From: an uncultured Chloroflexia bacterium
GTDB lineage: Bacteria > Chloroflexota > Limnocylindria > Limnocylindrales > CSP1-4
DNA length: 64,000 nucleotides
Direction: 5' to 3'
Assembly (NCBI GenBank): GCA_963696045.1
Contig: CAVOIR010000001.1
Span: 139,199 to 203,198 of the forward strand
The notes under the pieces were generated by a model. It ran no database searches and had not been told where the DNA came from. It saw nothing but the letters and a program-made list of their open reading frames with translations. Of the stretch, positions 44,500-61,362 are shown in pieces. Within the stretch, counting starts at the first letter, position 1. Every line of letters starts with the position of its first letter. The position numbers were made by a program, and so were the translations under genes.

Positions 44500-45382
44500 T
44501 GATCCGGCGGCGGCCGTCCTGGGCGTCCGCGCTGGTCGCCATCGCGCTCGCTGCGTCCTCACGGGCGTCCTGGCCACACGCGGTCGCTGCGGGCCGTCGA
44601 GCCCGCGTGCGGCGCCAGCGACGCGCGCCGCCTCGTCTCCGAGGCGCAGCTGCGCCGGCGGCCCGTTCCGCAGCGTCGTGCTGGTGGCCGTCGGCGAGCG
44701 CGTCGTCTGCACCGGCTTCGTCGTGGCTCCGCGCAAGGTCGTGACGGCGGCCCACTGCCTGGCGCGCGACGCGTCCGGCGGTGACTTCCGCTTCCGGCGC
44801 GACCTGCCCGGCGAGCGTGCGCCTCTACCGCGCCTTCAGCCAGGCGGCCGGCGGCGAGACGTTCGGCAGCTGCGCGGTGTCGAGCGTCTGGGCGCATCCG
44901 CGGTTCATCAAGGGCGACCCGGACGACCCGGCGTTCGGCAGCCGCGCTCACGACTACGCCGTCCTCACCGTCCCCGAGGAGTGCGCCTACCCGAACAGCG
45001 CGGTCATCCGCATGTGGCCGACCGACGAGGCGGACGGACGAGCTCCCCGCCGGGACGCGCCATCTTCCTGTCCGGCTACCCGGCCGACGGGCGCTTCGAG
45101 GGCATGAACGGCCTGAACCTCTGGCGCAGCCAGGGCGAGGTGCGGCCGCCCGACGGCGACCCGCGCCTCATCGACACGACGGGCTTCGTGGCCCAGGGCA
45201 TGAGCGGCGGCCCGGTGTGGGGCTCGTTCGGCGCGGACTCCCCGTGCGGCCGCGCGCAGTGCGTCGTCGGCATCCTCACCGAGTGCGCCGTGAACGGCCA
45301 GGGCCAGTGCCGGCTCGGCGACAGCCTGCGCCGCGCCATCCGCATCACGCCCACGGTCAAGGCCGCCATCCAGCGGCGCTGA
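44500..45382 (+). CDS. Secreted trypsin-like (S1) serine peptidase (frame changes; start approximate)
   Basis: The catalytic triad contexts are VVTAAHC (His), HDYAVL (Asp) and AQGMSGGPV (Ser). A signal-like segment ASALVAIALAAS lies upstream. Confidence 0.65.
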
Positions 45383-45412
45383 GGCCGCCGGCGCCGGCCG
45401 CCGACGGCCGCC

Positions 45413-46434
45413 TCAGCGTGCGGCAGGATCTCCTCGGTCACCGCGTCCGCGAGCGCCTCGAGGTCCGGCGTCGCGGGCTGCCGCTTGACGACGACGACGT
45501 CCTCGGCGCGCTCCAGGATCCGCAGGCGACCCTCGGCCACGAGCCAGCGGTCGACGGCCCCGAGCTCGCCCGCGAACGTCGTCCAGGTGGGCACGCCGAG
45601 GACGGCCGCCTCGCGGTTCATGGTGCCGCCGGCGCTGATGACGGCGTCGGCCATCCAGACGCAGCGAGGGCCCATCCACGGGCGCGGCGGGCACGATGAC
45701 GCCCGGGCGTGCCCGCGAAGCGCGGCGCCCTGCTCGGTCGTGCGCGGCAGCAGCACGACCTGGACGCCGCCGTCGAGGAGCCGCTCGAGCACCGTCGTCG
45801 AAGACGGTGTTGTGGAGGCCCCGGTGGTAGAGGCTCATCGTGGCCGGCGGGCGCAGCACGGCGATGGGACGCTGAGCGGTCCAGGCCGAGCTCGTCGAGC
45901 CACGCTCTCGTCGGGCACGAAGTCGGCCAGGGTCGACCTGCTCCTTGAGGCCCGGCGTAGGGCCGGTAGCGGCGACGGTCGAGGCCCAGGCGCGGCCAGC
46001 GACTCGAAGGGGATGACCTCGGGCAGCATGACCTTGTCGGCCAGGCGGAAGTTGATGCGGTGCATGCCCTGCGGCGCCCTCGAAGTCGTGCAGGACCGTG
46101 CTGTGGATGCGCAGCAGGCGCGCCGCCACGGCGAGGTCGTTGGAGCCGTGGCTCACCGCCTGGCTGAAGCCGCGCCCGCGCCCGAAGCGCACGAGCGCCC
46201 CCGAGCGCCGCACGAGCCCGAGGCCCTTGCCGCGCAGGGACGCGCCGCCGTGGCGGCCGATGACGGTGTGCGGGATGCCGAAGCGCTCGAGCAGGCCGAG
46301 CGTCTGGGCGAAGTCGCGCGCCGTGACGTCCACTCGACGCCGGCCTCGTCGAGCCGCCGCAGGATGGGCCGGAAGAAGAGGACGTGCGGCGAGTTGGTGA
46401 GGTCGATCCAGACCTTCGCGGGGCCAGCCGGCAC
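45413..46434 (-). CDS. DUF354-family protein (GT-B/epimerase-like fold), frame changes
   Basis: KVWIDLTNSPHVLFFRPILRRL, FGIPHTVIGRHGG, ISAGGTMNREAAVLGVPT. Confidence 0.6.
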
Positions 46435-46499
46435 GGTCAGCTAGAGGACGTCGACGCTCACGGCTCGCCGACTCTAGCACTCGTGGCATCCTTGCCGGC

Positions 46500-47633
46500 A
46501 TGCCCGGGCTCATCCACGTCGTCGGCGCGCGGCCGAACTTCATCAAGGCCGCGCCCGTCATCGCCGCGCTCCGGGCGGCGGGCGTCGAGCAGCGCCTCGT
46601 CCACACCGGCCAGCACTACGACCGCGGCCTGTCCGACGTCTTCTTCGAGGAGCTCGGCCTGCCCGAGCCGGACCTGAACCTCGGGCGTCGGCTCCGGCAG
46701 CCACGCGGCCCAGACGGCGGCGCTGCTGTGGCGCTCGAGGCAGAGCCTTCCTGGACCTGAGCGCCGGACGGCGTCGTCGTCTACGGCGACGTCAACTCCA
46801 CGCTGGCGGCGGCGCTCGTCTGCGCCAAGCTGCTCATCCCGGTGGCGCACGTGGAGGCCGGCCTGCGCTCCTTCGACGCGACGATGCCCGAGGAGGTCAA
46901 CCGGCGCGTCACCGACCTGCTCTGCGACCCGCTCTTCGTGACGGCGCCCGAAGGGCGAGGTCAACCTCGCCGCCGAGGGCATCAGCGGCGAGCGCGTCGT
47001 CTTCGTGGGCAACCCCATGATCGACACGCTGCTGGCGCACCTCGACCGTCTCCAGCCGGGGCCGGTCATGGCGCGCCTGGGGCTGACGGCGCCGTATCGG
47101 GGTCGCGACGCTGCATCGGCCGGCCAACGTGGACACGCCGAGGCGCGCCGCGCGCGCTCGTGGAGGCGCTGCGCGCGGCCACGCGGCGCCTGCCCATCGT
47201 CCTGCCGCTCCATCCCCGCGGCCGCGCGCACGCTCGCCGCGGCCGGCCTGACGGAGGTGCCCGGCCTGCATCGTCGTCGACCCGCTCGGCTACCTCGACT
47301 TCCTCTCGCTCGTCCGCGGCGCGGCCGTCGTCATCACCGATTCGGGCGGCATCCAGGAGGAGACCACGATCCTCGACGTGCCCTGCCTGACGCTGCGCCC
47401 CAACACGGAGCGGCCCATCACGCTGACGCGCCGGCACGAACCGGCTGGTCACGCCGGAGACGCTGGCCGATGCGCTCGATGCCGCCCTGGCCGGCGCCCA
47501 GGCGCGGCCCGGCGACGGGCCACCGGGCTGGGACGGCCACGCCGGCGAGCGCATCGCCGCGGTCCTCGTGGAGCGCTGGGGACGGCTGGCCGGGACGCGT
47601 CGTCGCGACCGAGCGCACCGGCCAGCCGGGTGA
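46500..47633 (+). CDS. wecB: UDP-N-acetylglucosamine 2-epimerase, non-hydrolysing (frame changes)
   Basis: [64 protein letters not shown]. Confidence 0.85.
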
Positions 47634-48758
47634 GCAGGCCGCCGCGCCGTCCGACGCGCCCGCGGACGCGCGCCATCCTCCTGCCCTCGTACGCCTGGAA
47701 CCCGTACCAGCGCCTGCTCGCCGCTGCGCTCGACGGAACAGGGCGTCGGCGCGCGCGCGCTCGGCCAGTGGCCGCGCCGCGCCCCCATCCTGGGCGCCTG
47801 GTGGGCCAACGGCCGGCCGGACGTCGTGCACCTCCACTGGATCCACGAGTTCCTGGGCGGCAGCCGGGGCCCGCCATCCGCGCCGCACCGTGCGCTGGTT
47901 CGACTGGCAGCTGCGCATCCTCAAGGCGCGCGGCGTGCGCATCGTCTGGACGGTCCACAACCTGGAGGGCCACGAGGCGGCGGCGCCGACCGCGATGCCG
48001 AGGGGCCCAGCGCGACGCCGACGGCCGCACCGCAGCCATCATCGAGCGCGCTGACGCCATCATCCTCCACTGCGCCGCCGCCCGCGACGGGCTCATCGAT
48101 CGCTACCGGCCCAGCGACGGCCGCCCGGCGGCGGATGCACGTGCTGCCCCACGGCAACTACGTGCCGCCAGTACGCCGTCGACCTCGACCGCGACGCAGG
48201 CCCGGGCGGACCTCGACCTCGCCTCGGCCGGACCCGTCTTCGCCTTCGTGGGCTCCATCCGCGGCTACAAGGGCGTCGGCGAGCTCCTCGAGGCCTTCAG
48301 CGGCGCAGGCCGACCTCGGGCCGGACGCCCGGCTGCTCGTCTGCGGCAAGCCGCTGCCGAGCCGGCTCGGCCGCGAGCTCGAGGAGCGCGCCGCGGCCGA
48401 CCCGCGCATCAGGCTGCGCCTCGAGCGCATCCCCGAGGCGGACCTCTCGCGCGTCCTCCGCGCGGCCGATGCGGTCGTGCTGCCCTTCCGCGACATCCTC
48501 ACCTCGGGCAGCGCCATCCTGGCCCTGAGCCACGGTCGCCCGGTCATCGCCCCGGCCCTGGGCTGCCTGCCCGAGACGCTGCCGGCGGACGCCACCATCC
48601 TCTACGACCCGGCCGCACCCGGATGCCCTGGCGGCGGCCCTGCGCGATGCCGCCCGCGCCGACCTGGCCGCCATGGGGCTGCGTGCCCGGGCGTTCGCGG
48701 ACACCTCGACTGGGGACCCATCGCGGCGGCCACGGCGCGGCTCTACCGGGGCGACTGA
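47630..48758 (+). CDS. GT4-type glycosyltransferase (frame changes)
   Basis: The GTG overlaps the wecB stop (GTGA). DVVHLHWIHEF, RIVWTVHNL, FVGSIRGYKGV, LLVCGKP, SGSAILALSHGRPVIAP. Confidence 0.65.
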
Positions 48759-48775
48759 GCCGCGCCCGAGGGCGC

Positions 48776-49782
48776 TCAGAAGGCCATCGCGCCCCTAGCC
48801 CGAGCCTCTTGCCGCGCCCCGGCTTCGCTCAGCCCGCTCGTGTCCGATCCGCCTTCCGCGCCGCGGCGGCCGCCTTCGATCTCCTCGAGCTCGGCGAGGT
48901 CCTCGTCGTCGAGCTCGGCTTCGTCGAGGTCGGCTCGCCCTCGGCGACCTCGGCCAGCCGTGCCCTCCTTGCGGGCCGTGCGGATGTCCACGAGGTCGAC
49001 CTTGCCGTGCTTGATGAGCTGCTTGGCCTTGCGCTTCTGCTTCATGCGCCGCTCGGCGTCGTCCTCGTGCATGTCGGCGATCTCCTCGGGATCGCCCTCG
49101 GCCACGATCTGGCCCTTGTCGAGGAGGATGGCGCGCGTGCAGAAGGCCGTGATCCAGCTCATGTCGTGGGTGACCATGACGACGGCCTTGGCCGTCTGCA
49201 GCACCTCGGCGATGCGGCGCCGGCTCTTCTCCTTGAACTTGTTGTCGCCGGTCTGGAGGACCTCGTCGAGCAGCAGGATGTCCGGGTCCACGGCGGTGGC
49301 GATGGAGAACCCGACCCGGGCCCGCATGCCCGACGAGTACGTCTTCATGGGCGCATCGATGAAGGCCCCGATGTTGGCGAAGGAGATGATGCCCGGGCGT
49401 GATCTCCTCCATGAGCTTGTGGTCGATGCCCATGAGCGCACCGGCCAGGGCGATGTTCTCGCGGCCCGAGAGCTCCTCGTCGAGGCCGGCCTGCAGGCTC
49501 AGCAGGGTGGAGACGTGACCGTGCGCCTCGACCACGCCCTCCGAGGGCTGGATGATGCCGGCCAGCGCCAGCAGGAGCGTGGACTTGCCCGAGCCGTTGG
49601 GCCCGATGACGCCCGACCGCCTCGCCGCGGCTGACCGTCAGGTCGACGCCGCGCAGCGCCCAGAAGTGGCCCTTCCGTCGTCGCCGCGGGTCGAGGAGGT
49701 TGGCGAAGGTCGTCTGCAGCTTGGTCTTCTTGGTGAGGTTGAGGTTGTAGCGGACGCCCAGGTTCGTGGCCCGCAGCGCCAT
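48776..49782 (-). CDS. ABC transporter ATP-binding protein, Wzt/TagH-type polysaccharide exporter (frame changes)
   Basis: Walker A VIGPNGSGKSTLL (reverse complement of about 49570-49610), signature YSSGMRARVGF, Walker B ILLLDEVL. A charged C-terminal tail of about 100 aa follows. Confidence 0.8.
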
Positions 49783-49937
49783 CTCCCCCGTGGGCACCGG
49801 GCACGCGCAGGCCGAACGTGCCGGGCTCGGGCGCCTCGTCGTCGGCCTCCACGGCGGACGTCGTCGAGCTGGGCCAGGGCGGCCTCGTCGAGGCGGCTGT
49901 CGTGGCGGTTCCTCCCGGCCGCCCGTGGTCGGGTCGC

Positions 49938-50908
49938 TCACAGGAGCTTCGCGAAGGCCGGCTCGAGCCGCTTGAAGACGATGCGTGCCGATGACGATGA
50001 AGACGACGCCCGAGACGAAGATGACGGCCAGCATCGGGAGGTCGGGATGCGTGGCGGGCGTCCAGATGAGCTCGCGCCCGCCATCGGCCGTCGGGGTGGC
50101 ACCGAGGTCGCCGTAGATGACCTTGCGGTACGACTCCAGCAGGATGGCCATGGGGTTGTAGTGGAGCACGTTGAAGAGGGTCCCGATGGGCAGGCCCGAG
50201 GGCCTGGTCGGCATCGGCCATGGCCTCCTCGAGCGCCTGGCCGCGGCCGGCCACCGCGTTGAACGACCAGAGGATGGGCGAGACCCAGAAGAGCAGGCGC
50301 ATGAAGTGCCCGATGACGATGCCCACGTCGCGGTAGAAGACCGTGACGGCCGCGACCATGAACGTGAAGCCCAGCACGAAGACGAACTGCACGACCGCGA
50401 TGAGCGGCACCCAGACGACCTGCGACCGTGAGGTGGGCTGGTGTAGGCCACGAGCAGGACCAGGAACAGCACGAGCATGCCGAAGAGGAAGCTCACGACC
50501 TGGGAGAGGTCGCTCGTCACGGGCAGGATGATCTTGGGGAACATGATCTGCTTGATGAGGCCCTGTCTGCCCGTGACCGCGTGGGTCGAGCTGCCGATGG
50601 TCGAGGTGAACCACTTGAAGGGCACCATGGCGGAGAGCAGGAAGAGCGGGAAGTCGGGCGTCGCGCGCTGGAAGATGACGGTCATGACGAGCACGTAGAT
50701 GAGCATCGTGATGAGCGGGTCGAGCACCCACCAGACGTTGCCCGAGCACGGTGTTGGCGCCGCGCTTCTTGATGTCGGCGCGGACCATGTAGCCGATGAG
50801 CCGACGGCGCGACCAGACGTCGGTGATGGCGTTGCGGATGAGGGCGACCGGACCAGGCCGGTCGGCGCTGCTGCGGAAGGCAGCAGGTGCCTCGTTGACG
50901 ACTCCCAT
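49938..50908 (-). CDS. ABC-2 type (Wzm/TagG-like) exporter permease (frame changes)
   Basis: RRLIGYMVRADIKKR, LDPLITMLIYVLVMTVIF, FLLSAMVPFKWF, LIKQIMFPKIILPV, YNPMAILLESYR. About six TM helices. Confidence 0.75.
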
Positions 50909-51026
50909 GGACGGCCTAGATGGTAGCGGACCGCGCGGCCGCCGCGACCGGCCCGCTCGGGACGGCCGGGAGCCGCGCCGGCTCGCCTGCCGGACCGCAG
51001 TCGCGCCCGGCGCTAGAGTCGGGCCG

Positions 51027-52336
51027 GTGACGCGCCCCAGCCCGCAGCCCGTGTTCGTCGTCGGCGGTCCGCGCTCGGGCACGACGCTGCTCTCGGCCAT
51101 GCTGGCCGCGCATCCGGCCTTCGACTGCGGTCCGGAGACGCATTGCCTGTCGCGCTGGGCGCGCCTCGGGCGCCGCGAGCGGGCGCGCATCCTCGACCCG
51201 GCCGACTGGCCCGCGCCGCGCCACCGCCTACGTGACCAGCCTCTCGCTCGGCAAGCAGCCCATCCACCCGATGTACGGCCTGACGCGCGAGGACGTCCGC
51301 GCCTGGCTGGCCGCCCGGCCGCCGTCGCTGGCCGCCATGCTCGAGTCGCTCACCGAGCAGCGCGCGCTGCGCGACGGGCGCGCCGCGCTGGGTGGAGAAG
51401 ACGCCGCGCCACCTCGAGGTGCCGGAGCTCATCGTCGAGACCTGGCCGGGGGCGCGCCTCGCTGCGCATCGTGCGCGATCCGCGCGACGCGGCCGTGTCG
51501 CTCACGAGGGTGCCCTTCGGGACGCCGTCGCTGCTCACCAACCTCTCGGTGCTGGCGCGCATGAACGAGGCGGCGGCCGACTTCTATCGCGACCTCGCCG
51601 CAGGCCCTCACCGTGCGCTACGAGGACCTCGTGGCCGAGCCGGAGCGGGAGCTGCGGCGCATCTGCGACTTCGTGGACGAGCCGTACGACGCGCGCATGC
51701 TCGAGGACCGCAGCGCGGTCAGCGGCGTCGCCGCCGCGCACGAGTGGTGGAAGGGCGATGCCACCGGGCCCACTCGACCGCGGCCGCTCCGGGCGCTGGC
51801 GCGAGGAGATGCCCGCCGAGGTGCAGCACTACGTCGCGCTCAACATGGGCGACCTGCTCGAGGAGCACGGCTACGGCACGGCGGTGCCGGCCGCCCGCCA
51901 GCTGGCCATCGTGCCGGCCGGGGACGCCCTGAGCTCGAGGTACGACGACGTCCTGCTCCGGCTCGCCGCGTCCGACGTGGCCGTCCGCCGGCCGGTCCCG
52001 GCCACCATCGAGCAGCTGCACCTCCAGGAGCCGCTCGTGTTCTTCGGCGTCGTCGGCCAGCTCGACCCGGACCGCGGGCAGCCGGCGCGCCGAGCGCGTC
52101 GTGGCCATCGCCAGGCTCGGCGCGCTGCTCCTGACGCGGCGGCTGCAGGGCCGCCCGGTGGTCTGGGTGCGGCGCCTGAGCCTCATCCGCCGCCATCCCC
52201 GCGACGGCGGCGAGCGCGTTCATCGCGCGCCTGCTGCAGGTGCTCGCGGTCGCGCGGAGGCCGACGACCTGCCGGCCCTCGTCGGCGCGGACGGCCGAGA
52301 CGCCTCGACCGCGTCGCTCGTGACGACCGAGGCTGA
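51027..52336 (+). CDS. Sulfotransferase paralogue 1 with C-terminal extension of about 150 aa (many frame changes)
   Basis: 5'-PSB loop VFVVGGPRSGTTLLSAMLAAHP, 3'-PB region LRIVRDPRDAAVSL, then LTVRYEDLVAEPERELRRICDF, HEWWKG, GRWREEM. The extension reads IVPAGDALSSRYDDVLLRLA...LVFFGVVGQLDPDRG...LLLTRRLQGRPVVWVRR. Confidence 0.7.
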
Positions 52337-53652
52337 GGTCGCCTCGCCGCCTCCGGCGTCGCATCGGCCGCGGCGCCCATCTTCGTCGTCGGCGTGGCTC
52401 GCTCGGGCACGACGCTCCTGTCGGCCATGCTGTCGGCGCACTCGCGCCTCGACTGCGGCCCGGAGTCGCGCTTCTTCGCCCGCTTCCGCCACCTCGACGC
52501 GCAGCGCGCGTCGCGCCACGCTCGACACCGGCCGACCTGGCCCGGGCCCCGCGGTCGACTTCATCGCCTCGCTGCGCAACCAGGGCCACCCGGTCGTCGG
52601 AGCTCTTCGGGCTCCGGCTGCGCGACGTGCGCGAGTACCTCGCGGGCCGGCCGCCGTCGCTGGCGGCGATGCTCGAGTCGCTCACCGTCCTCCACGCCCG
52701 CCGGGCGGGCAAGGCGCGCTGGCTCGAGAAGACGCCCCGCCACCTGCTCATGACCGACGCTGCTGCGGCGGCTCTGGCCGGAGGCCCGCATCGTGCGCAT
52801 CGTGCGCGACCCGCGCGACGTGGCCCTCTCGCTGGCGGGCCTGCCCTTCGCCAAGGAGTCGGTCGTCGGGAACCTCGTCCGCGTCGACCAGGACGATCGC
52901 GCCTCGCGCGACCGCATCGCCGCGGACCCGCTGGCCATGACCCTGCGCTACGAGGACCTGGTCACGGAGCCGGAGCGGGAGCTGCGGCGGATCTGCGACG
53001 TTCGTCGGCGAGGCGCTACGAGCCCGCCATGCTCGATTCGCGGACGCTCGGCGGCGGCCGTCGCAGCCGACCACGAGTGGTGGAAGGCCGCGGTGGCGGG
53101 ACCGCTCACCACCGCCAGCGTGGGACGCTGGCGGCGCGAGATGTCGGCCGATGCGCAGCGCTTCGCGGCGCTCCACCTCGCCGACTTCCTGCGCGAGCAC
53201 GGCTACGAGGGCGCCCGCGACGCCGCGCACGAGGTGGCCATCGTGCCCGGTCGCGGACGCGTGTCGGGTCCGCACAACGAGCGGCTCCTCCTCGAGCTGG
53301 CGCGCCGCTCCGCGGTCGTGCGTGCGACCCGCTCCCGACGAGCCTCGCGGAGCTCCACGCCCAGGCGCGACCTCGTCTTCCTCGGCGTGCGCGGCCAGCT
53401 CGACCCGAGCCGCGGGCGGCCCATCGCCAGGCGCGCTCATCTCGTGGCCTCGGCATCGGGGCCGGGCTGCTCGTCCGGCGGCTGCAGCGCCGTCCGGTCC
53501 TCTGGGTCCGCCGCGCCACGCTGCGAGCCGCGACGCCCACGCGATCCCGCTGGAGCTCTGCCTCGTGGCCGCTGCTGCGCCTGCTGGCTCGCCAGGTCGA
53601 ACCCGAGGAGGTCTGGCAGCCGCCTGCCGCCTCCGCGCTCGACGCGGCGTGA
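52320..53652 (+). CDS. Sulfotransferase paralogue 2 with the same C-terminal extension (many frame changes)
   Basis: IFVVGVARSGTTLLSAMLSAHS, WLEKTPRHL, RIVRIVRDPRDVALSL, MTLRYEDLVTEPERELRRICD, HEWWKA, GRWRREM. The extension reads IVPGRGRVSGPHNERLLLELA...LVFLGVRGQLDPSRG...LLVRRLQRRPVLWVRR. Confidence 0.7.
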
Positions 53653-53709
53653 TCCCGAGCGCCAGTCGCGCGCCCGCAGCCGGCGTGCCCGCTAGACTCG
53701 GCGTGGCCG

Positions 53710-54812
53710 ATGCGCATCATCGTCACCGGCGGCGCCGGCTTCATCGGCTCCACGTTCGTGCATCGGCGCCTCGCCGCCACGCTCTGACCACGTCACGGTC
53801 GTCGACAAGCTCACCTACGCGGGCAACCCTGCCAACCTGGACGGCCTCGCCGACGACCCCGCCACCCGCGAGCGCTACCGCTTCGTCCAGGCCGACATCG
53901 CCGACGAGCCGCTCATGCGGGAGCTCGCCGCCGAGCACGACGCCATCGTCAACTTCGCCGCCGAATCGCACGTCGACCGCTCCATCCTCGAGCCGGCCGC
54001 CTTCCTGCACACCGGCGTCATGGGCGTCTACTCGCTGCTCGAGGCCGCGCGCGCCGAGCACGAGAAGCGCGGCGGGTCAGGCCGCCGCGGCGACGAGGGT
54101 GCGACGTCAGGCCTTGACGCCGACCAGCGGCTTCCGCTTCCTCCAGGTCTCGACCGACGAGGTCTACGGCTCCGTGCCGGTCGGCCTCAGCGTCGAGAGC
54201 GACCCCATCCGGCCCGACCAGCCCCTACAGCGCCGCCAAGGCGGCCGGCGAGCATCTCGTGGCCGCCTACCACGAGACCCACGGCCTCGACACCGTCGTC
54301 ACGCGCGGCGCCAACACCTACGGCCCCCACCAGTATCCCGAGAAGCTCATCCCGCTCTTCATCACCAACGCGCTCGACGACGAGCCGCTGCCGATGTACG
54401 GCGACGGCATGCAGCGCCGCGACTGGCTCTTCGTGGACGACCATGCCGACGGCATCGCCGTGGCCCTCGATCGCGGCGCCAGCGGCGCCGCCTACAACCT
54501 GCCCGGCGACGGTGTGGAGCGGCCCAACCGCGCGGTCACCGAGGCCATCCTCGAGGCGCTCGGCAAGCCCTGGTCGCTCGTCCGCACGCGTGCCCGACCG
54601 ACCCGGCCACGACCGCCGCTACGCTCTCGACGGGTCGCGCCTCCGCGGCCCTCGGCTGGCAGCCGCGCGTCTCGTTCGAGGAGGGCATCGCCCGCACCAT
54701 CGCCTGGTACGCCGAGCACCGCGACTGGTGGGAGCCCATCAAGCGCGGCGATTGGGCCGACTACTACCGCGCCCAGTACGCCTGGCGCCTCGAGCAGTCG
54801 GTCGAGGCCTGA
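53710..54812 (+). CDS. rmlB: dTDP-glucose 4,6-dehydratase (frame changes)
   Basis: MRIIVTGGAGFIGS, VDKLTYAGN, NFAAESHVDRS, QVSTDEVYG, YPEKLIPLF, PMYGDGMQRRDWLFVDDH. Confidence 0.9.
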
Positions 54813-55049
54813 GCCGGCTCGGCCGCCTGACGCACGGGCCCCTCACGACCGCCGGCCCACGCGGTCACGACGGTCGGCGCCGACGCGCTAGACTTCGGCG
54901 GCGCGCGCTCGCGACCGTCAGTCCCTCGTGGCGCCGCAGGGACGCGCGCCAGCCCGGCGCTGGCCCCTGCGACCGAGACGTCGTCCGGCCCAGGCGCCGC
55001 CAGACGACCCGAAGCGCCCCACATCCACCAACCGGAGACCAGTCACCGC

Positions 55050-58997
<3,948 letters not shown>

Positions 58998-59001
<4 letters not shown>

Positions 59002-59729
59002 GCATCGGCGGAGGCATGCGCTACCGGGCCGATGGCCGGACGCCGGGCCAGATGCGCCCGGTCTCCATCGACCTCGACGTGCAGAAGTGGGCCGCGGCCT
59101 CGCTCATCTTCCGGCAGGGCGACACGCACGTCGTCTGCTCGGCCACCGTCGAGGACCGCATCCCGCCGCACCTGCGCGGCAAGGGCACGCGGCTGGGTCA
59201 CCGCCGAGTACGCCATGCTGCCGGCGGCCACCTCGGAGCGCATGCAGCGCGAATCGGTCAAGGGCCGGCCGGGCGGCCGGACCTACGAGATCCAGCGCCT
59301 CATCGGCCGCGCCCTGCGCGGCGTCGTGGACACCTCGGTCATGGGCGAGCGCACCGTGACCATCGACTGCGACGTGCTCCAGGCCGACGGCGGGACGCGC
59401 TGCGCCTCGATCACCGGCGGCTACATCGCGCTCGTGCTGGCGCTGCGCAAGGTCGGGCCTCGAGCGCGCCATCACCAGCAAGATCGCCGCCATCAGCGTG
59501 GGCATCGTGGCCGGCACGCCGCTGCTCGACCTCGAGTACCGCGAGGACTCGAGCGCCGAGGTCGACTTCAACGTCGTGGGCACGGACGCCGGCACGTACG
59601 TCGAGATCCAGGGCACCGCGGAGGGCAAGCCCTTCGACCGCGCCCAGATGGACCGCCTCCTGGCGCTCGCCGACGGCGGCCTCGCAGAAGCTCTTCGCCA
59701 TGCAGGCCGAGGTGCTCGCGCAGCGGTGA
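58998..59729 (+). CDS. rph: Ribonuclease PH (frame changes)
   Basis: The ATG overlaps the mazG stop (ATGA). [59 protein letters not shown]. Confidence 0.9.
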
Positions 59730-60400
59730 CGGATCCGTCGGCGGCCGTCCGGAGCGGTTCCGGAGCGGCGCCTCCTGCTGGCCACGCGGGCGCGCCACAA
59801 GGTGCGCCGAGCTGGCCGAGCTGCTCGACCTGCCCGGGGTCACGCTGCGTCACGCCCGGACGAGGTCGGCGTCGAAGGTGAGCCGGTCGAGGACGCCGAC
59901 TCGTTCCGCGGCAACGCCGAGATCAAGGTCCGCTACTACGCCGCGCGCTCCGGGCTGCCCACCCTGGCCGATGATTCGGGCCTCGAGGTGGACGCGCTCG
60001 ATGGACGGCCCGGCGTCTACACGCGGCGCTACGCGGGACCCGATGCCACCGACGCGCAGAACAACGCGCGGCTCCTGGCCGAGCTCGACGGCGTGCCGCC
60101 CGAGCGGCGCGGCGGCCCGCTACCACTGCGTGCTCGCCTACCTCGACCCCGGCGCGCCCGGCGTCCCGCGCCGGTCTTCCGCGACGGCACGTTCGAGGGC
60201 CGCATCGCGGCCGGTCCGCGTGGCGACGGCGGCTTCGGCTACGACCCCGTCTTCGAGCCCGCATCCGAGCCGCCCGGAGGGCGTACCGTGGGCCAGATGA
60301 GCGCCGCGGAGAAGCACGAGCTGTCGCATCGCGGCAAGGCCGCCCGCGCCATGGCCGAGTACCTGCGCGGCACGGACCTCGTGCGCGGCAGGGCGGCTGA
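59726..60400 (+). CDS. rdgB: Non-canonical purine NTP pyrophosphatase RdgB/HAM1 (frame changes)
   Basis: The GTG overlaps the rph stop (GTGA). [51 protein letters not shown]. Confidence 0.8.
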
Positions 60401-60402
60401 CC

Positions 60403-61362
60403 GTGCCCGTCGACCGACCCCGCGTCGTCGTCGGCGGCGAGGCCCTCATCGACCTCATCATCGACCAGTCCGGCCGCGTCACGCCCGGCGCCCGGCGGCG
60501 GCCAGTACAACACGGCCCGCGCCATCGCCCGACTCGGGGGCGACGCGCACTTCCTCGGGCGCATCTCGGACGACTGGTTCGGGCGCCTGCTGCGCGGCCG
60601 GCTGGAGGCCGACGGCGTGGGCACCGACCTCGTCGTCGAGACGGCCGACCCGACGACGCTCGTCCTGGCCGAGATCGACGCCGGGGCGTGGCGCACTACC
60701 ACTGGTACATCGAGCGGACGACGGTGCCCGGGCCTCGAGCTCGACGGACGCGCGCCGCGCCCTCGCTCCTGCGCCGGATGCGCTCCACGTCGGGACGCTG
60801 GGCCTGACCATGGAGCCGGTGGCCGATTCGCTGGCCGCCTCGTGGCCGAGGTGCCCGACCGAGACCCTCGTCATGGTCGACCCCAACTGCCGGCCGACCG
60901 CGACGCCGGACGTGGCCGTCTACCGCGAGCGCATGACCCGCGTCCTGGGTCGCGCCGACATCGTCAAGGGCAGCGACGAGGACTTCGCCTATCCTGGCCC
61001 TGGCCGACTCGACGGAGGCTGCCGCGCGGTGCCTGCTCGAGCGCGGCGTCGGCGCCGTCATCGTGACCCACGGCTCGGAGCCGGCGCGGGCCTGGTGCGC
61101 CGGCGGCGAGGTGAGGTGCCGGTGCCCGGGTCGAGGTCGTCGACACGGTCGGTGCCGGCGACACCTTCGGCGGCGCCTTCCTGGCCTGGTGGCTGGAGCA
61201 GGGCCTGGGCCGGGAACAGCTCGGCGACCGCGACCTGCTCGCGACGCCGTGACCTTCGCCGCCCGCGCCGCCGCCATCAACTGCACCCGCGCCGGCGCCG
61301 AGCCGCCGACCCGCGCCGAGATGGTCAGCGGAACCTCGGAGCCGCCACAATGGCCGCCATGA
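60403..61362 (+). CDS. PfkB-family carbohydrate kinase (frame changes)
   Basis: VVVGGEALIDLI, GGGQYNTARAIARLGG, ADIVKGSDEDF, VVDTVGAGDTFGGAFL (PfkB signature 2), INCTRAGAEPP. Confidence 0.7.

Follow-up and report, generated by a model that had tools for sequence, protein, structure and literature searches.

Tandem sulfotransferases sharing a candidate new C-terminal domain in an uncultured Chloroflexota bacterium

Do two adjacent sulfotransferase genes that resemble each other beyond the end of their catalytic domain carry a second domain that has escaped classification, and what could that domain do? The question is raised by positions 51027-53652 of a stretch of 64,000 nucleotides (nt), here called the window, from an uncultured soil Chloroflexota bacterium known as a Limnocylindria-type metagenome-assembled genome (MAG). 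The segment holds two tandem genes on the + strand, ST1 and then ST2. An earlier sequence-only reading placed their limits correctly, with a GTG start at 51027 and a TGA stop at 53650-53652, and took them to be diverged paralogues that are colinear over their full length. The stitched products of 438 amino acids (aa; ST1) and 429 aa (ST2) bear this out, with 50% identity over 391 aa (E 2e-111) that runs colinear into the C-terminal region. The extensions alone, compared with compositional adjustment, are 49% identical over 106 aa (E 4e-26), so that the similarity survives the correction of the reading frames that the same reading had called for. The similarity of the two window extensions is far beyond chance. 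The enzymes are of a known kind, sulfotransferases dependent on 3'-phosphoadenosine 5'-phosphosulfate (PAPS); the new part is a lineage-restricted basic domain of predicted alpha/beta fold.

Bacterial sulfotransferases for polysaccharides have been little characterised, and there is demand for them in the making of sulfated glycans. In the subfamily described here, a catalytic domain of the standard PAPS-dependent kind is joined to a compact one of ~135 aa that no database recognises and for which the predicted fold is confident. Its conserved gene cluster, which includes family 4 glycosyltransferases (GT4), an ABC-2 type exporter of the ATP-binding cassette (ABC) class and a dedicated adenosine 5'-phosphosulfate (APS) kinase, probably directs the synthesis of a sulfated polymer of the cell envelope in uncultured Chloroflexota of soil. 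The scope is narrow, with two of the sampled genera covered, and we infer the function; the finding is of value as a starting point for structural and biochemical studies.

An unclassified domain after the catalytic domain

The extension begins after the residues EEHGYG, where a catalytic domain of ~285 aa ends and a linker of ~10 residues leads into a domain of ~135 aa. Searching Pfam at E <= 10 with 12 extensions returns no family. NCBIfam has no match to the extension, only a sub-threshold match of the catalytic part to the NoeE equivalog (NF052394), with 40.4 and 44.5 bits for a cut-off of 500. A sequence-profile search of the PDB matches the catalytic domain only and leaves the last ~135 aa unmatched. 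Foldseek of the full model against the PDB returns nothing for the C-terminal part, and Foldseek of the isolated extension finds no PDB match at E <= 0.001. The extension, which the sequence-only reading could not assign, therefore stands outside the known families in Pfam, NCBIfam, PDB sequences and PDB folds. With no detectable sequence relative outside this sulfotransferase subfamily, it is a candidate new domain family.

Several other origins for the extension were tried and rejected. A glycosyltransferase fragment (a GT-B half-domain) is rejected by hhalign probabilities of 0.2-0.4% against alignments of the neighbouring GT4, DUF354 and Epimerase_2 genes, together with the lack of a Pfam match in the 12 extensions. 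An internal duplication of the sulfotransferase fold is rejected by a probability of 0.5% for the extension against the catalytic domain, and the alignment of the ABC ATPase also scores below 1%. A stand-alone extension gene is rejected since the short matches (P0121-P0131) start either within the catalytic domain or where a contig ends or a frame is broken. Intact orthologues read through the extension; together with the hhalign results, this removes the possibility of a separate reading frame or of a glycosyltransferase fragment that was raised with the original description of the locus.

In a full-length AlphaFold2 (AF2) model of the intact orthologue P0004, computed from the alignment of 44 homologues and with a predicted local distance difference test score (pLDDT) of 86.4 and a predicted template modelling score (pTM) of 0.86, the extension has strands at residues 288-293, 315-318, 334-337, 376-378 and 405-407, and helices at 301-312, 325-330, 351-370, 391-403 and 409-415. 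Modelled alone with 12 sequences, it shows the same elements (pLDDT 76.8, pTM 0.69). It is predicted to be an alternating beta/alpha domain, its five strands and five helices perhaps making a fold of flavodoxin-like or Rossmann-like type, and the full-length pTM suggests a fixed packing of the two domains. The alternation of five strands with five helices fits a three-layer alpha/beta/alpha fold, and the weak PDB fold matches are generic folds of this kind (best E 0.012-0.1, template modelling (TM) scores 0.30-0.47): flavodoxin, class-I glutaminase subunits, SGNH esterases, TIR, pseudo-receiver and nucleoside deoxyribosyltransferase. The difference from flavodoxin-like folds is that these matches are not significant (best E 0.012, TM <= 0.47), that the extension has no cofactor-binding motifs, and that no Pfam relationship is found.

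The motifs quoted in the sequence-only reading (IVP, VR(R)P, LVFxGVxGQLDPxRGxP and RRLQxRPVxWVRR) are all present, and intact orthologues show little or no variation in them. No variation occurs in either paralogue group at the P of IVP, at the R-P-x-P that follows strand 2, at the G-x-x-G-Q-L that follows strand 3, at the R-P-x-x-W of strand 4, or at several Arg and an Asp. Divergent members retain only the Gly after strand 3 and R-P-x-x-W, and because no catalytic-looking signature is kept in them, the residual conservation seems to serve structure and not catalysis. The extension is strongly basic, with a median net charge of +5 (up to +15 in ST2) and a median isoelectric point (pI) of 10.9, compared with a median net charge of -3 and a pI of 6.2 for the catalytic domain.

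Catalytic domain, frame breaks and gene junction

No single open frame crosses 51027-53652 in either the list of open reading frames (ORFs) or a three-frame translation. Frameshift-aware protein-to-DNA alignment to intact orthologues takes gene 1 along the frame path 0,1,2,0,1,2,0,1 (8 breaks) and gene 2 through ~12 frame changes, with nearly all breaks in both genes being +1. Aligned in this way, ST1 has 380 of 436 residues identical to P0001/P0004, and a dynamic programming alignment of ST2 to the ST2 of the syntenic contig L015 has 325 of 418 identical. When the L015 products are searched against the window by tblastn, every window gene between ~44.6 and 61.3 kb is split into two to six frame pieces, including housekeeping genes (APS kinase, MazG, dehydratase), and the syntenic L015 genes are intact. 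Uninterrupted orthologue ORFs of 397-440 aa, reading through the extension, occur on dozens of contigs. Since all neighbouring genes are broken likewise and orthologues elsewhere are intact, the frameshifts are, on this comparison, assembly errors, and we reject pseudogenes and programmed frameshifting for the same reasons. The source genome is a 2.56 Mb assembly in 18 contigs with a completeness score of 57%, and the related public records are long-read MAGs (uncultured Chloroflexia, Chloroflexota, Candidatus Limnocylindrales bacterium).

As a side observation, the near-uniform +1 shifts at 44600-61300 fit a systematic one-base insertion error and the 57% completeness. Other indel-ridden assemblies of the same locus yield mis-called fusion ORFs, P0110 (592 aa), P0148 (915 aa) and P0149 (934 aa), which read pieces of ST1, ST2 and the dehydratase through in wrong frames.

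Pfam Sulfotransfer_3 (PF13469) covers residues ~8-223 of both enzymes at scores far above its cut-off of 27 bits (Table 1), and all homologues also exceed the gathering score. A profile of 44 homologues matches the tyrosylprotein sulfotransferases TPST1/TPST2 among PDB sequences with E 6e-21 to 1e-18, the match ending at position 286, and then the sulfotransferase domains of CurM (E 4e-15) and of olefin synthase (E 3e-12). Foldseek of the full P0004 model agrees, with TPST1 at the top (E 4e-11, TM on target 0.69-0.70) followed by other sulfotransferases. In the 44 sequences and in both paralogue groups, the R of PRSGTT, the E of CGPE(T/S), the K of EKTPRH and RDPRDxxxS are invariant. The corresponding motifs PRSGTT, CGPETH, EKTPRH and RDPRDxxxS are intact in both reconstructed window genes. 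A profile hidden Markov model (HMM) alignment to TPST1 pairs them as PRSGTT, CG(P/E)ET, (E/N)K(T/D)P and RD(P/G)R...S, which gives the window enzymes the TPST-type 5'-phosphosulfate-binding loop (5'-PSB, PxxSGTT), the 3'-phosphate-binding motif (3'-PB, RDxR...S) and the catalytic Glu and Lys positions. Because the cofactor and catalytic motifs are present in both reconstructed genes, both enzymes look active. Without a signal peptide or membrane segment, and with the P-loop starting from ~residue 8, ST1 and ST2 are cytoplasmic as far as their sequences indicate.

The likeness to TPST1/TPST2 (PDB 5WRI/5WRJ, 3AP1-3) thus extends to the same catalytic fold and motifs, but the identity to the window enzymes is only 22-24%, and the TPSTs stop where the catalytic domain of the window enzymes stops, having no C-terminal alpha/beta domain. 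TPSTs are Golgi type II membrane proteins acting on protein tyrosine, whereas the acceptor of the window enzymes is, from gene context, probably a glycan. The CurM and olefin synthase domains (PDB 4GBM, 4GOX; Foldseek E ~1e-10) are likewise bacterial Sulfotransfer_3 domains, but they form part of polyketide synthase modules, with a thioesterase after them, whereas the window enzymes are free-standing and followed by an unrelated unclassified domain.

The sequence-only reading also noted that the gene 2 GTG lies at the end of gene 1 and proposed translational coupling. The window has GTGA at 52320, in which the GTG overlaps the gene 1 TGA, and this fits a 4-nt overlap type; the exact junction is blurred, as the frames on both sides need extra indel corrections, and the conserved core of ST2 begins at 52373 (APIFVVGVARSGTT). 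Among the orthologous loci, L017 and L019 have a 4-nt overlap of the ST1 stop with the ST2 start, L016, L018 and probably L020 (at its second ATG) have one of 8 nt, and in L015 the two lie 16 nt apart. With overlaps of 4 or 8 nt in at least 4 of 6 orthologous loci, tight coupling of ST1 and ST2 is supported as a conserved trait.

Table 1. Coordinates of the two sulfotransferase genes and of selected neighbours in the window.
Feature	Positions	Strand	Evidence
ST1 catalytic domain, PAPS-type (Sulfotransfer_3), GTG to ...LLEEHGYG	51027..51877	+	Pfam PF13469 106.7 bits
ST1 catalytic domain frame breaks (~5)	near 51210, 51373, 51461, 51591, 51766
ST1 C-terminal extension, ~140 aa: predicted basic alpha/beta domain and variable acidic tail	51878..52323	+	paralogue and orthologue alignment
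ST1 extension frame breaks	near 52094, 52218, 52253; probably one more before TGA 52321-52323
ST2 catalytic domain; likely start GTG 52320	52320..53209	+	Pfam PF13469 100.8 bits, junction analysis
ST2 catalytic domain frame breaks	near 52541, 52599, 52762, 52997, 53016, 53044; at least one more between 52320 and 52373
ST2 C-terminal extension, ~140 aa, and TGA stop	53210..53652	+	paralogue and orthologue alignment
ST2 extension frame breaks	near 53321, 53346, 53371, 53463, 53527, 53568
ABC-2 type (Wzm/TagG-like) permease, divergent from ST1, frameshifted	49954..50908	-	tblastn with L015 product; PF01061 on orthologue
ABC ATPase (Wzt/TagH-like), charged C-terminal tail, frameshifted	48839..49910	-	tblastn E 9e-123; PF00005 on orthologues
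NDP-sugar (nucleoside diphosphate sugar) 4,6-dehydratase/epimerase, downstream of ST2, split over three frames	53707..54809	+	tblastn E 1e-153, six pieces
APS kinase (makes PAPS)	57181..57721	+	tblastn; PF01583 search

Distribution, history and gene cluster

The subfamily is confined to a narrow lineage. An exhaustive HMMER search with the extension profile against 1.84 billion representative proteins returns only 40 matches, 28 of them at E <= 1e-10. All full-length matches are a sulfotransferase followed by the extension, and the rest are fragments or mis-called fusions; matches of 915-1246 aa are either such fusions, from contigs full of indels, or weak matches to low-complexity sequence, for instance to a Calx-beta protein (E 3e-6). 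Within the same GTDB genus, 24 of 24 genomes match, many with two or three tandem full-length copies. None of the 16 genomes examined from a sister family match, and the extension profile has no match in 400 genomes drawn from other genera across the phylum. Sampling 39 genera of the family finds the enzyme only in its own genus and in one other (g243), and no close extension-less orthologue was seen in the remaining sampled genera. A GTDB-wide pattern scan gives 24 loci, all in Chloroflexota MAGs. A literature search on Limnocylindria together with sulfotransferase found no papers.

In a maximum-likelihood tree, the extension-bearing enzymes form one clade (support 99/97) apart from extension-less sulfotransferases. 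It comprises an ST1 clade, an ST2 clade in which ST3 is nested, and a separate P0146/P0161 clade. One genome of the same genus (GCA_034667005.1, locus L052) has the same cluster with a single sulfotransferase plus extension. Given the single clade and this single-copy genome, the tree indicates that the extension was fused once in the subfamily, before the tandem duplications that gave ST1 and ST2 (and ST3). The third tandem copy occurs at L016 12518-13688 (the same as L031), L036 7633-8973 and L041 7573-8952, and further relatives with ST3 are represented by the loci G010:C1:367541-371299 and G001:C10:15563-19339.

One gene order is common to the 30 ST1/ST2-type loci that were fetched, among which two pairs represent a single contig each, and the window has the same order by tblastn. 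An ABC ATPase and an ABC-2 permease lie on the opposite strand, then come ST1, ST2 and sometimes ST3, usually an NDP-sugar dehydratase, and then a parvulin-type rotamase and the APS kinase. None of the 30 lacks the permease, the ATPase, the sulfotransferase genes, the rotamase or the APS kinase. Upstream are GT4, UDP-GlcNAc 2-epimerase and DUF354 genes, often with a UDP-ManNAc-type dehydrogenase. In orthologous loci, PF01061 and PF00005 accompany GT4, DUF354 and Epimerase_2, the composition of an ABC-transporter-dependent glycopolymer pathway (Wzm/Wzt or TagGH). The co-occurrence with ABC-2 exporters that the sequence-only reading had put forward for survey therefore holds for the ST1/ST2 clade, and fails for the sister clade found elsewhere.

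The APS kinase is single-copy and always in the cluster in a PF01583 search of the source genome and three relatives. CysD/CysN lie outside the cluster. These observations on PAPS supply refer to window 57181-57721, G000:C5:86644-87318 and L049. Genome searches found neither a Sat-type sulfurylase nor a second gene of the PAPS_reduct family (CysH-like), these genomes being incomplete. With the sole APS kinase in the cluster, CysD/CysN elsewhere and the search for a second PAPS_reduct-family gene negative, sulfation rather than assimilation may, within the limits of incomplete genomes, be the main use for which PAPS is made. The conserved cluster, with its ABC-2 exporter, its GT4s and the only APS kinase, suggests a sulfated glycopolymer. 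PAPS genes and sulfotransferases in a polysaccharide locus with an ABC transporter are a described hallmark of sulfated polysaccharide synthesis (PMC11641403). Sulfated capsular polysaccharide clusters such as that of Vibrio sp. KMM 8419 follow the same logic, a single locus combining glycosyltransferase genes with those for an ABC exporter, an APS kinase and sulfotransferases (PMC11641403). The rhizobial fucose sulfotransferase NoeE has a weak NCBIfam match to the window enzymes (40 bits vs a cut-off of 500) and is not orthologous. These systems differ from ours in belonging to another phylum than Chloroflexota and in having sulfotransferases that are not orthologous, and none is reported with this C-terminal domain.

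The Wzt-like ATPase (window 48839-49910, - strand, and the L015-L020 orthologues) varies from 311 to 406 aa in a charged C-terminal tail, which in L016 appears as a separate ORF of 104 aa; precomputed Pfam matches show no recognised carbohydrate-binding domain in these ATPases.

Proposed function and its alternatives

The reading that we favour, and to which we give an even chance, is that the tandem two-domain sulfotransferases sulfate a glycopolymer, and that the extension is a non-catalytic binder of the polyanionic acceptor or of the membrane. The sequence-only reading had suggested acceptor recognition, membrane association or oligomerisation as possible functions. ST1 and ST2 would act in the cytoplasm, sulfating the glycopolymer or a lipid-linked precursor of it. 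Products of the adjacent GT4, DUF354 and UDP-GlcNAc-2-epimerase genes would assemble the glycan, the APS kinase of the cluster would supply PAPS, and the ABC-2 transporter would export the sulfated product. The two enzymes probably differ in the position they modify or in acceptor specificity. The extension, most likely non-catalytic, would lie packed on the catalytic domain and bind a polyanion, and so hold the acceptor at the active site. The polyanion would be either a glycan chain that is acidic or carries sulfate already, together with its pyrophosphate-lipid anchor, or the anionic surface of the membrane at which this substrate is found. The fixed domain packing suggested by the high pTM fits an extension of the acceptor site.

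Several points weigh against this proposal. The high Arg content of the extension is partly a consequence of 75% GC, and the domain packing is read from the pTM score. The class of acceptor, putatively a glycan, is taken from gene context only, and sugars are not what the nearest catalytic relatives of solved structure sulfate, their acceptors being protein tyrosine or intermediates of polyketide synthesis. The synteny comes almost wholly from one GTDB genus, so that the loci are not independent. Finally, the P0161-type sister clade (L051 9001-13438) has no ABC-2 gene within 9 kb, and its neighbours are genes for S-adenosylmethionine (SAM) synthetase, S-adenosylhomocysteine (AdoHcy) hydrolase, two extension-less sulfotransferases and the GDP-mannose pathway.

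Oligomerisation, by which the extension would be a module for forming homodimers or ST1-ST2 heteromers, is a more doubtful explanation. The paralogues are always adjacent, their overlaps of 4 or 8 nt favour equimolar co-synthesis, and both are kept in all genomes with two or three copies. Small alpha/beta domains often dimerise, and TPSTs, the closest solved relatives, are homodimers. But GCA_034667005.1 has only one copy in the same cluster and members of the P0146/P0161 clade also occur singly, so heteromerisation cannot be the original role, and the strong positive net charge on both partners disfavours their mutual association.

We consider it unlikely that the extension serves to dock the enzyme to the ABC-2 exporter, for instance through the charged tail of the Wzt-like ATPase, with sulfation coupled to export or acting as a chain-terminating mark that licenses export. 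Export in ABC-transporter-dependent O-antigen systems is controlled by terminal modification, as with WbdD/Wzt, and the divergent adjacency to the permease and ATPase genes in 30/30 ST1/ST2 loci and in the single-copy genome would suit such a coupling, as would a variable, charged tail on an ATPase of 311-406 aa. Yet synteny inside one genus is weak evidence, and the P0161-type enzyme carries the extension beside SAM-cycle and GDP-mannose genes and two extension-less sulfotransferases, where no ABC-2 gene occurs within 9 kb.

A small-ligand-binding or catalytic role, as a regulatory sensor of a nucleotide, PAP (3'-phosphoadenosine 5'-phosphate) or PAPS, or as a second activity (esterase, transferase) on the same glycan, strikes us as quite improbable. 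Conserved polar residues do follow strands 1, 3 and 4 (IVPxxD, GxxGQLDPxR, RRxxxxRxxxD) in loops that are the usual ligand sites of alpha/beta domains, and flavodoxins, SGNH esterases and nucleoside deoxyribosyltransferase are among the weak fold matches, but those matches are not significant (E >= 0.012, TM <= 0.47), the GQLDP loop is degenerate in the divergent P0144, P0146, P0156 and P0131, and no catalytic triad or P-loop is recognisable.

That the feature is not real, being chance out-of-frame similarity of GC-rich DNA, a separate small ORF, a glycosyltransferase fragment or a pair of decaying pseudogenes, deserves next to no credence: neither window gene has one open frame and 75% GC produces long spurious ORFs in all frames, but colinear intact orthologues of 397-440 aa stand on dozens of independent contigs, the extensions alone match at E 4e-26, AF2 predicts the extension domain with confidence, hhalign gives less than 1% against the GT4, DUF354 and Epimerase_2 genes, and the equal frameshifting of neighbouring housekeeping genes points to sequencing or assembly error rather than decay.

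A bolder version of the favoured proposal would make the extension a new binder of polyanions or lipid-linked glycans that tethers a TPST-like enzyme at the membrane, and the sulfation by ST1 and ST2 a terminal, export-licensing mark of a Chloroflexota envelope polymer. We hold this combination to be unlikely; if true, sulfate would here play the part that methyl or phosphate caps play in ABC-transporter-dependent O-antigen pathways.

One last observation concerns the double-parvulin rotamase of ~600 aa, which always lies between the sulfotransferases and the APS kinase (L017 10741-13096, L018 10802-13190, L019 10689-13047, L052 10323-12633). In three loci the rotamase gene overlaps the APS kinase start by 8 nt, which suggests that the two are in one operon.

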